A stretch of 64,000 bases of DNA, from NCBI RefSeq assembly GCF_048403405.1, contig NZ_CP183129.1, one strand, 5' to 3'. Positions 169 through 60,878 of the stretch are shown piece by piece. The number at the start of each line of letters is the position of its first letter. The stretch's first letter is position 1. The notes beneath the pieces are model-generated. The model ran no database searches and was not told the DNA's origin. It worked only from the letters and a program-made list of their open reading frames with translations. This DNA is from Escherichia coli. GTDB lineage: Bacteria > Pseudomonadota > Gammaproteobacteria > Enterobacterales > Enterobacteriaceae. Both the position numbers and the translations under genes were made by a program.

Positions 169-245
<77 letters not shown>

Positions 246-279
246 TCACCGTACTGCTTTTACTTCATCAAATTTTGAT

Positions 280-356
<77 letters not shown>

Positions 357-389
357 TCACCGTACTGCTTTACTTCATCAAATTTTAAT

Positions 390-466
<77 letters not shown>

Positions 467-4788: not shown

Positions 4789-4994
4789 AAAAAAAAGCAC
4801 CGCAATTAGGCGGTGCTACATTAATCACTATGGACAGACAGGGTAAATGTACAGGAAGTGAAAAAAGGTAGCTTTGCTACCATGGTCTGAATCGCAGACC
4901 AATTGCAAACACAACAACACAACATCACAACCGTAAGCCAAAAGTTCACCAGAACACGCATTCCGATAAAACTTTTCGTTCCGGCTCAGGAAGT
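4789..4994 (-). ncRNA. gcvB: GcvB small regulatory RNA (Hfq-dependent regulator of amino-acid and peptide transporter mRNAs)
   Basis: Minus strand reads ACTTCCTGAGCCGGAACGAAAAGTTTTATCGG...GTTGTGATGTTGTGTTGTTGTGTTTG...AGCACCGCCTAATTGCGGTGCTTTTTTTT, matching E. coli gcvB including the GU-rich R1 region and terminator; divergent from gcvA. Confidence 0.9.
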
Positions 4995-23213: not shown

Positions 23214-23579
23214 GTCGACAGGGAGTCAGACAACGAAGTGAACATCAGGATGATGACACTTCTGAAGGACACACCAGGATGGTGTTTCAGGGAAAGGCTT
23301 CTGGATGAAGCGAAGAGGATGACGCAGGACGCGTTAAAGGACACCTCCAGGATGGAGAATGAGAACCGGTCAGGATGATTCGGTGGGTCAGGAAGGCCAG
23401 GGACACTTCAGGATGAAGTATCACATCGGGGTGGTGTGAGCAGGAAGCAATAGTTCAGGATGAACGATTGGCCGCAAGGCCAGAGGAAAAGTTGTCAAGG
23501 ATGAGCAGGGAGCAACAAAAGTAGCTGGAATGCTGCGAAACGAACCGGGAGCACTGTGAATACAGTGCTCCCTTTTTTT
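23214..23579 (+). ncRNA. csrB: CsrB sRNA (CsrA-sequestering RNA)
   Basis: Begins GTCGACAGGGAGTCAGACAACGAAG; at least 8 CAGGATG/AGGATG motifs plus further GGA motifs; ends with hairpin gggagcactgtgaatacagtgctccc plus 7-nt T run; located between syd and yqcC as in E. coli. Confidence 0.92.
23547..23579 (+). terminator. csrB intrinsic terminator
   Basis: Perfect hairpin gggagcactgt / acagtgctccc followed by TTTTTTT. Confidence 0.85.
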
Positions 23580-23624
23580 ATTCCTGCTATCCTTCGCGGC
23601 AGTTTTTCTTATTGAGGTTGCTTT

Positions 23625-37996: not shown

Positions 37997-39649
<1,653 letters not shown>

Positions 39650-39668
39650 GTAAAAAAGTTAGAACGGC

Positions 39669-39691
39669 AACGCGTACCCTGGGTACGCGTT
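39669..39691 (+). terminator. Palindromic hairpin in the pyrG-eno spacer (partial terminator or processing site)
   Basis: aacgcgtaccc t gggtacgcgtt, 11-nt perfect arms, followed by gtttgt (weak U run). Confidence 0.4.
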
Positions 39692-39721
39692 GTTTGTCTG
39701 GAGTTTCAGTTTAACTAGTGA

Positions 39722-41035
<1,314 letters not shown>

Positions 41036-41060
41036 GTCTGACTTTATCTGATTTAAAAAT

Positions 41061-41085
41061 GCCAGCCTTCGGGCTGGCATTTTTT
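41061..41085. terminator. Bidirectional intrinsic terminator between convergent eno and ygcG
   Basis: gccagcc ttcg ggctggc hairpin flanked by A-rich run upstream and T run downstream (T/U run on both strands). Confidence 0.8.
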
Positions 41086-41094
41086 ATGGTTGAG

Positions 41095-41967
41095 TTACCA
41101 GCGACCGGACGCGCCGCCACCGCCAGAAGAACCGCCCCCGCCGCTAAATCCGCCGCCACTTGAGCCGCCACCGGAACCGCTGTTGTCTGAATGATAACTT
41201 CTACCAGATGCTTTTTTCTGAAGTACACATAAACAGGTAAAGACCATAATGGTGGTGAAAGTAAAAAAGAAGAAAAATACAGCAATGGAAAAAGTTTTAT
41301 CGGAGAACAGGAATAAATCTAAAAGATAGATTGCTGAAATACAGACACTGCTTTTACATGCGCGACAAAAATTACTGCCTTGATGAAAAAACCAGAAAGG
41401 GAAGAACATCACTGCAAATACCCAAAAAATAGCAAAGTAGTAATGATCGCTGGAAGACGCTGATTCACTTTCTGAAGGATTAGCCGAATATTGGTGTTGT
41501 GAAGTGAGTTGGTTATTCAAAGCGATTATAGCTAACTCTAATCCCTTAGCTAATTTTTGTTGTTTAAATGCGGGTATCATGTTGCTACGGATGATATCTC
41601 CAGCCAGAGCATCGGTTACCTTTTCTTCCAGCCCATAACCTACCTGGATGCGGACAGTACGATCCGACCAGGCAACAATGATCAGTATCCCATCATTGCG
41701 TTTGGCATCTCCTAAACGCCAATTGTTAAAAACCCTTGTAGCATATTGTTCAATTGTCTCGTCTTTGGTTGTGGGAATAATTAATACAGCAATTTGTACT
41801 TGGGTATTATTGAAAATAGATTCTAACTTCCGCGTCAGTTCTTTCTTTTCTTGTGAGTTTAAGCTACTCGTAAGATCCGTAACTTGTTGCTGTAATTGTG
41901 GGACAATAGTTGGTTGGGCTGCAACAAAGGAACACACGAATGTGAATATTAGTATGAAATAGCGCAT
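41095..41967 (-). CDS. ygcG: TPM-domain (TLP18.3/Psb32/MOLO-1 phosphatase-like) membrane protein YgcG
   Basis: Signal peptide [21 protein letters not shown] domain, TM segment, Gly/Ser-rich C-terminal tail ([27 protein letters not shown]); start set at the ATG at 41967 (290 aa), the track start at 42012 is also an ATG; AT-rich coding sequence. Confidence 0.8.
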
Positions 41968-42260
41968 TATAAATGTCCCATTAAAGCTGGATAAATAAAT
42001 TGACGGCGACATCGGTAATTTGAGATTCGTTATAATTAAAAACGAACACAGAAAAAATAAGTATAATTTTGGTGAATGTTTTTGACATGATTAAATCCAT
42101 TTGCTTTATTTATTTCTGACATAATACGTTACTCCCTTTTATTATTAACGATCTGTTTCTCATTTTTCTTTAAACCTGCCTGTAACAGAATGTTAATAAG
42201 ACATGATTGTTGCGGCAGGATCTGCAATAATTAACAATTATCCACTTCACAGAGAATGCT

Positions 42261-47645: not shown

Positions 47646-47698
47646 TTAGCGATTATGCCCTTATGATAAAAATTATCTCCAGTTACCAGAGATAATGA

Positions 47699-47743
47699 GA
47701 AAGGTAACTTCCCTCTCGCGGGGGAAGTTACCTTTCTTTTTTT
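47699..47743 (+). terminator. Strong intrinsic terminator inside the ygcW 5' leader (candidate antitermination target)
   Basis: Perfect 15-bp stem gaaaggtaacttccc / gggaagttacctttc (47699-47713 and 47722-47736), 8-nt loop, then TTTTTTT (47737-47743), ending 24 nt before the ygcW ATG. Confidence 0.75.
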
Positions 47744-60517: not shown

Positions 60518-60725
60518 GCGAGCAGCATTCCGGCATTTAAAGGTGAACATCGCAGGGAGAATTAACAGGTATAGAATGGAGTTGGGTGCTTGAGGCTGTC
60601 TGGCGTTAAGCATTCGCGAGGTTCCAGATGGACAAAAGCCCCAGGCGATATTTCTATCAACCTGAGGCCAGCGTTCGAACCTAAGCAATTCGAATGTTAG
60701 TCTCTTCTTTGCAGGGAGGCAAGAC

Positions 60726-60878
60726 ATGCTGACAAAATATGCCCTTGTGGCAATCATCGTACTGTGTTGTACAGTACTGGGATTCACGCTGATGGTAGGC
60801 GACTCGTTGTGTGAGTTGAGTATCAGAGAACGTGGTATGGAGTTTAAGGCAGTTCTCGCTTACGAATCGAAGAAGTAG
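60726..60878 (+). CDS. Hok-family type I toxin (50-aa small membrane protein), part of a hok/sok-like locus
   Basis: [53 protein letters not shown]: N-terminal TM helix plus conserved Hok motif DSLCE...R...[11 protein letters not shown]; below the 60-aa cutoff of the ORF track; followed by hairpin cgcgggg gtaaaa ccccgcg (60885-60904) and a T run; K-12 carries a hok/sok-type locus (sokX) at this position. Confidence 0.8.

Follow-up and report, generated by a model that had tools for sequence, protein, structure and literature searches.

The 87-nt spacer between pyrG and eno in the window (the whole 64,000-nt stretch of E. coli DNA that was analysed) encodes a GC-rich hairpin that, judged from its pattern of substitutions, is a selected sense-strand RNA structure conserved across Enterobacterales. 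With a probability of roughly 0.65, this hairpin supplies the double-stranded part of an RNase III-dependent post-transcriptional processing site that separates the eno mRNA from the pyrG mRNA. The structure is genuine and not new, as it has already been described in the literature on E. coli K-12; the present analysis adds its covariation across Enterobacterales, the terminators that Vibrionaceae and Haemophilus carry in this place, and the observation that the -27 end resembles an RNase E/G-type site. In the proposed mechanism, the palindrome would encode the 13-bp apical helix of an interrupted hairpin of ~18-20 bp in sense pyrG-eno transcripts, to which RNase III would presumably bind directly. 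RNase III-dependent cuts at the foot of the hairpin (-77) and downstream of it (-27) would free the eno message from pyrG and strip the hairpin, leaving an eno mRNA whose short, AU-rich leader begins with a 5′-monophosphate. This leader would then be open to attack by RNase G (and RNase E), including a cut leaving 18 nt, and enolase output would thus be uncoupled from CTP-synthase output.

The sequence-only reading had reported a perfect palindrome with 11-bp arms and a near-zero loop between the two genes, and aacgcgtaccc-t-gggtacgcgtt was found at 39669..39691 exactly as given and, as claimed, within the 87-nt spacer (Table 1). The palindrome is indeed perfect, but the length of its arms had been understated, as one extra pair on each side extends it to 12+1+12 bp. 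When the window was simulated 100 times with a first-order Markov model, perfect palindromes with arms of at least 12 bp and loops of 0-4 nt numbered 0.02 on average per 64-kb window (0.11 for arms of at least 11 bp), and the palindrome is therefore no chance feature. An 801-nt query around the site gave one match each in 5425 of 5426 complete E. coli genomes, with pyrG and eno annotated. The hairpin 32-mer was identical in 5300 of these 5425 genomes and was present at one locus per genome; an apparent second place was the same site on the opposite strand. Seven of the 5425 genomes fell in the 90-95% identity class, which is the class of E. coli strain E1739, where a 3-nt insertion (GTACCACCCTGGGTAC) is located in the hairpin loop (L082:41-75) and the stem is intact. 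About 2000 of the 5425 genomes have at least one difference from the window within the 87-nt spacer. In K-12, the spacer departs from that of the window by a single base, A39664G, situated outside the helix in the internal loop that adjoins the 5′ side of the apical helix, so the published K-12 results hold for the window. In MG1655, the hairpin region corresponds to 2,907,968-2,908,018 on the minus strand (2,947,678 minus the window position).

Table 1. Coordinates of the features of the pyrG-eno region in the window.
Feature	Position	Strand	Description and source
pyrG (CTP synthase) CDS	38012..39649	+	ORF list and RefSeq annotation of identical E. coli genomes; stop codon ends at 39649
pyrG-eno intercistronic spacer, 87 nt	39650..39736	+	Doubles as eno 5′ UTR in read-through transcripts
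eno (enolase) CDS	39737..41035	+	ORF list and RefSeq annotation of identical E. coli genomes
Perfect DNA palindrome CAACGCGTACCC-T-GGGTACGCGTTG	39668..39692		No strand; 12-bp arms, single central T
Apical RNA helix, 13 bp	39666..39694	+	5′ arm 39666..39678, loop CUG 39679..39681, 3′ arm 39682..39694
Extended hairpin	39659..39701	+	Basal helix UUAGA (39659..39663) / UCUGG (39697..39701); MFE and suboptimal folds
U-rich tail TTGTTTGTCT	39690..39699	+	Conserved across Enterobacterales; overlaps the 3′ base of the stem
AU-rich eno leader UUUGUCUGGAGUUUYAGUUUAAC...GAGGAAAACCUA	39693..39736	+	Highly conserved; alignment of 50 Enterobacterales spacers
Published 5′ end -77 (formerly enoP6)	39660, +/- 1 nt	+	Olvera 2009 sequence mapped; RNase III-dependent (Lee 2019)
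Published 5′ end -27 (CAG|UUUAAC; formerly enoP4-P5)	39710	+	Olvera 2009 sequence ends ...GGAGTTTCAGT; RNase III-dependent (Lee 2019)
Implied RNase G cut	39719	+	Counted 18 nt back from the ATG at 39737; text of Clarke 2014

When folded as RNA, the 87-nt spacer reached -27.9 kcal/mol (z = -3.07), a value that none of 200 shuffled sequences matched, and the 25-nt palindrome alone gave -17.0 kcal/mol. The hairpin, which starts 17 nt after the pyrG stop codon, was retained in larger sequence contexts and among suboptimal folds. Because an RNA loop needs at least 3 nt, the loop in the transcript is CUG. The two basal pairs of the apical helix are G·U and exist in the sense strand only; in the antisense strand, just 11 Watson-Crick pairs form. 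The basal and apical helices are parted by a 2x2 internal loop (AC / UG), which gives an interrupted structure of about 18-20 bp in total. The E. coli MFE hairpin comprises 18 bp broken by this loop, and the hairpins of other genera total 14-23 bp. For comparison, a substrate for double cleavage by RNase III is a stem of about two helical turns (~20 bp).

A scan for the PyrG C-terminus with one genome per species yielded 80 loci, ranging from Enterobacterales to Pseudomonas. The two genes were adjacent in Enterobacterales, Vibrionaceae, and some Pasteurellales, with spacers of 47-193 nt. A GC-rich hairpin occupied the same place in essentially all of the 50+ Enterobacterales spacers, with stem sequences that differed among relatives (for example, CAACGCGTACC, CAGTGCACCC, CAATGCACCC, CAGCGCCCC, CAACGCGCGA, and GGGGCGGCA), and it was followed on the 3′ side by a nearly invariant tail and leader (TTGTTTGTCTGGAGTTTTAGTTTAACTTGTACTGAGGAAAACCTA-ATG). 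When pairs were counted from this conserved 3′ anchor, at least 6 stem positions displayed several pair types. A covariance model constructed from 15 gapless seeds matched the + strand in 31 species at E < 1e-6 and had a single match in the 64-kb window. In the resulting 31-species alignment, the apical helix was 97% paired, compared with just 30-54% in controls in which the partner was slid by 1-3 columns. Compensatory double changes were present at 7 of the 13 apical-helix pairs among these Enterobacterales species, and the double-change cells numbered 68, as opposed to 22 +/- 3.6 in shuffles, none of which (0 of 500) reached the observed value. RNAalifold independently predicted 12 of the apical-helix pairs, 6 of them compensatory. 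The basal helix was 80.6% paired in the same alignment and showed no compensatory change; other genera lengthen the stem with sequences of their own.

The near-zero loop applies to the DNA of Escherichia, with its 1-nt centre, but not to the hairpin in general, as relatives carry non-complementary loops of 3-5 nt (CCT, AAG, TCG, ATTC, and others) and loop length across relatives extends from 3 to 13 nt. The 1-nt centre is a peculiarity of Escherichia, where the two outermost bases of the loop are complementary by coincidence. Insertions of ~90-110 nt were located in the loop in Siccibacter colletis (L012:2541-2710), Erwinia endophytica (L034:2541-2733), and Mangrovibacter yixingensis (L041:2541-2727). 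Each of them folds as a long hairpin of its own, with the base of the original stem (GCAACGCG...CGCGTTG) kept. These three insertions had no Rfam family match, and they may be small mobile palindromic elements targeting the hairpin. For the pyrG-eno hairpin itself, no Rfam match was obtained at permissive thresholds on 39000..40400, nor at gathering thresholds on the whole window and six loci; the best sub-threshold match over it was the nrdJ RNA on the minus strand, with 17.5 bits against a threshold of 40.3 (E = 2.9).

The sequence-only reading had offered an RNA processing site as one option, and published experiments on exactly the pyrG-eno spacer support it: RNase III-dependent ends flank the hairpin. 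Romero 2014 and Clarke 2014 cite Ow 2003 (Ow, Perwez & Kushner) for the presence of two RNase III sites plus one RNase E site in the spacer. Clarke 2014 refers to the RNase E site in this intergenic region as known and describes an RNase G-dependent cut after which 18 nt of the eno leader remain, and Romero 2014 classified the spacer sites as endonucleolytic cleavage sites from reads obtained without TAP treatment. According to Lee 2019, the 87-nt eno 5′ UTR carries RNase III- and RNase G-responsive cis-elements, and an eno-cat reporter with only -87..+60 suffices for the response to both enzymes. The same paper describes four 5′ ends in the UTR as RNase III-dependent and absent in an rnc deletion. 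One RNase III-dependent end accumulates without RNase G, and two correspond to the earlier "promoter" ends enoP4 (-27) and enoP6 (-77). It further reports that RNase III cuts a model hairpin in vitro, at positions that differ from the in vivo ends, and proposes that processing by the enzyme takes away "a large hairpin" located 5′ of the Shine-Dalgarno sequence. Whether enolase output gains or loses by this is disputed, with Romero 2014 stating that RNase III primes eno mRNA for inactivation and Lee 2019 that it enhances Eno production. It is RNase III, not RNase E, that is linked to the hairpin, and RNase E and RNase G act on the AU-rich leader downstream.

Mapped onto the window, the -77 end sits at the 5′ foot of the extended hairpin, and with -77 at 39660 and -27 at 39710 the two ends bracket the hairpin. 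The eno promoters reported at -212, -731, -760, and -903 are all situated upstream of it. The promoter reading of the -27 and -77 ends (Olvera 2009) was rejected, given that the ends are RNase III-dependent and appear as cleavage sites without TAP; a promoter scan found no sigma-70-like promoter in the spacer. Downstream of the hairpin, RN|WUU-type sites are located at 39703/39704 (GAG|UUU) and 39709/39710 (CAG|UUU), and the Shine-Dalgarno sequence GAGGA is at 39725..39729. In the MFE and suboptimal folds, U39660 pairs with G39700, which places the expected partner cut near 39702/39703 and not at 39709/39710. A single RNase III double cut is unlikely to have produced both -77 and -27, because the two do not face each other across the stem in a way that leaves the canonical 2-nt 3′ overhang; such a cut was rejected, as no fold puts them 2 nt apart across the helix. 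The Mfold model of Lee 2019 is stated there to give a 2-nt stagger for its sites 1 and 3. The -27 end, we infer, comes from a secondary cut of the RNase E/G type that is stimulated by the 5′ monophosphate made by RNase III, and is not the partner of -77, because it fits RN|WUU, because the stagger partner of -77 lies elsewhere (39702/39703), and because a requirement for a 5′ monophosphate could be enough to account for the dependence of this end on RNase III. Binding of CsrA at the two conserved GGA motifs of the leader (39700..39702 and 39727..39729; 27 nt apart), which resemble a dual site for this protein, was also considered and dropped, since the eno CLIP peak is in the coding sequence (MG1655 2907036-2907217) and not in the UTR.

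Among the other explanations, an element acting at the DNA level, either the operator of some dimeric regulator or a site of cruciform formation, would account for a perfect 25-bp palindrome with a 1-bp centre and for the wide conservation of the outer half-sites CAACGCG/CGCGTTG. However, an operator would have conserved half-sites at fixed spacing, whereas here the inner arms vary by compensatory substitution, the spacing of the conserved outer halves changes with loops of 3-13 nt, and these halves are ~100 nt apart by insertion in Siccibacter, Erwinia endophytica, and Mangrovibacter. Moreover, the 1-nt centre is restricted to Escherichia, and the G·U pairs lengthen the helix in sense RNA only. 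Covariation, variable loop, loop insertions, and G·U pairs together point to a sense-strand RNA structure and argue strongly against an operator or cruciform; the protein-binding site raised in the sequence-only reading is accordingly disfavoured, and a DNA-level role is very improbable. A repeated element of the REP/BIME type was ruled out by the single-copy occurrence (5425 E. coli genomes; one covariance-model match in 64 kb). A leaky intrinsic (Rho-independent) terminator or attenuator, matching the partial terminator offered in the sequence-only reading, in which the hairpin and its UUGUUUGUCU tail would stop some polymerases after pyrG and set the pyrG:eno ratio, is compatible with processing and carries some weight, though it remains on the unlikely side. 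Its geometry fits, with a GC-rich stem of 11-13 bp, a 3-nt CUG loop within the 3-8 nt typical of terminator stem-loops, 5-6 U in the first 8 nt past the Watson-Crick stem, a position 17 nt past the stop codon, and a conserved U-rich tail. The palindrome had been described as followed by only a weak U run, and this was correct (TTTGTCTGG). The tail TTTGTCTGGAGTTTC obtained a TransTermHP-type score of -4.08 (5/8 U) with a stem of Watson-Crick pairs only, ending at 39692, and of -2.93 (3/8 U) when G·U pairs were counted as stem. The former value falls between those of the three canonical terminator-like hairpins of the window (CsrB, eno, and 47698..47737; -5.2 to -5.8) and those of its other palindromes (-1.5 to -3.95, + strand). 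Nevertheless, a simple consensus terminator scan did not call the hairpin, because the U's at the start of the tail are engaged in G·U or A-U pairs with the 5′ arm. Furthermore, all four promoters listed above lie upstream, and their transcripts must read through the hairpin to express eno; eno-cat expression rises when pyrG sequence upstream of the hairpin is included (Lee 2019), which indicates substantial read-through. The tables of Adams 2021 (Term-seq) and Yan 2018 (SMRT-Cappable) contain no 3′ end at MG1655 2,907,97x-2,908,0xx, a weak counterargument, and the supplement of Gordon 2017 lists none in the spacer; the tables of Adams 2021 and Yan 2018 are uninformative here because the strong eno terminator is also missing from them. 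A terminator of the minus strand for the reported antisense RNA was rejected (tail score -1.93, with the T run starting 9 nt away).

Canonical terminator-like hairpins, each followed by a proper U tract (such as ...GGCAGCCGCTTTTATTTTT or ...TCACCGCTCTTTTATTTTG), are situated directly after pyrG in Salinivibrio (L070:2538-2613), Grimontia (L060:2538-2618), Vibrio (L069:2541-2624), and Haemophilus (L055:2541-2730). Since they share the position of the enterobacterial hairpin, they suggest a terminator ancestry, and the enterobacterial hairpin may descend from a true terminator. It is conceivable, though we hold it only tentatively and at low odds, that the hairpin is a dual-function relic in which the U tract of an ancestral pyrG terminator was weakened to the conserved leaky tail and the stem was lengthened, so that the element would terminate a fixed fraction of transcripts and also serve as an RNase III entry site. 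A further reading, which we regard as improbable, is an exonuclease barrier or end-protecting stem-loop that would protect pyrG mRNA from PNPase and RNase II at its 3′ end once RNase E-type cleavage had taken place in the leader, or shield the 5′ end of the -77 eno species from RNase E/G, giving the two messages differing half-lives. The very stable hairpin immediately past the stop codon, the RN|WUU-type sites just downstream, the location of the -77 end within the basal helix (such that this species would start with a nearly base-paired 5′ end), and the conservation of structure but not of apical sequence would all suit a barrier. On the other hand, the RNase III-dependent -77 cut takes the hairpin off pyrG mRNA, and Eno levels were unchanged by altered RNase E levels (both Lee 2019). 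Finally, the hairpin might be incidental and the RNase III substrate might be sense eno/pyrG RNA in duplex with a cis-antisense RNA that initiates within eno (+272) and extends across the spacer, which we consider decidedly improbable. As given in Lee 2019, cDNAs of the antisense RNA cover the region, replacement of chromosomal -45..-28 abolishes RNase III responsiveness, plasmids carrying eno up to +320 restore it, and one in vivo site is cut in vitro only with antisense RNA present. Yet a duplex of this kind needs no intramolecular hairpin, and the hairpin is maintained across Enterobacterales by compensatory changes and sense-specific G·U pairs; the endogenous antisense RNA was undetectable by northern blot (Lee 2019), and the minus strand is without a terminator-like tail at the hairpin. 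The covariation speaks for a role of the intramolecular structure itself, whatever antisense RNA contributes.

As an RNase III processing site, the region of the window is the same locus with the same hairpin as the published K-12 pyrG-eno RNase III/E/G region, and nothing substantive differs. The rpsO-pnp hairpin and the adhE 5′ leader (an RNase III site, followed by RNase G) resemble it in that a long hairpin is cut by RNase III and, in all three, the 5′-monophosphorylated downstream mRNA is then attacked by another nuclease. Cleavage of the rpsO-pnp intercistronic hairpin by RNase III was reported by Portier and colleagues in 1987. The pnp hairpin is described in the general literature as longer than that of pyrG-eno and as feeding PNPase autoregulation, with a separate terminator for rpsO. 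In contrast, at pyrG-eno the hairpin and the U-rich tail form one element, and the second nuclease is RNase G. Attenuators located within operons, such as that of the rplL-rpoB region, where an attenuator is combined with an RNase III site, likewise consist of a GC-rich stem-loop with a U-containing tail between co-transcribed genes of unequal expression. Unlike in these, the U tract of pyrG-eno is interrupted and partly base-paired, and the downstream gene is probably the more expressed one, which is the opposite of an attenuator effect. REP/BIME barriers to 3′ exonucleases (malE-malF) are also stable intercistronic stem-loops that could give unequal cistron stability, whereas the pyrG-eno hairpin is single-copy per genome and belongs to no repeated family. 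Romero 2014 groups rpsO-pnp, adhE, and pyrG-eno together.

Several other structured elements were identified in the window. Just past eno, a perfect palindrome with 13-bp arms (AAAAATGCCAGCC-TTCG-GGCTGGCATTTTT; 41055..41084) is flanked by an A tract and a T tract and resembles a bidirectional intrinsic terminator common to eno and the convergent ORF at 41095..42012 (-). Another perfect palindrome, with 16-bp arms (AGAAAGGTAACTTCCC...GGGAAGTTACCTTTCT; 47698..47737), is followed by TTTTTT and looks like a strong terminator because of its fold of -29.2 kcal/mol and tail score of -5.16. Matches at Rfam gathering scores include the CsrB sRNA at 23223..23582 (+; 382.9 bits), the GcvB sRNA at 4789..4994 (-; 199 bits), and a sok-type antitoxin RNA at 60584..60741 (+; 111.7 bits). 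The leftmost part of the window (169..466, -) contains three tandem tRNA-Met genes (CAT anticodon) whose Rfam scores are identical. In the species scan, pyrG and eno were about 0.8-1.0 kb apart in Pseudomonas, Kangiella, Methylomagnum, and related loci (L071, L073-L080). In one of these gaps (L075:2538-3412), the frame presumably encodes a KdsA-like protein, recognised by eye (...KASFDKANRSS...DVHE...).

Enolase works in core glycolysis and also belongs to the RNA degradosome, and eno is probably expressed at a much higher level than pyrG. The separation of the eno and pyrG mRNAs, published for K-12, is a worked example of expression tuned by RNases inside an operon. If the hairpin were in addition a dual-function relic of a pyrG terminator, a single 45-nt element would govern the pyrG:eno ratio at both the transcriptional and the post-transcriptional level.
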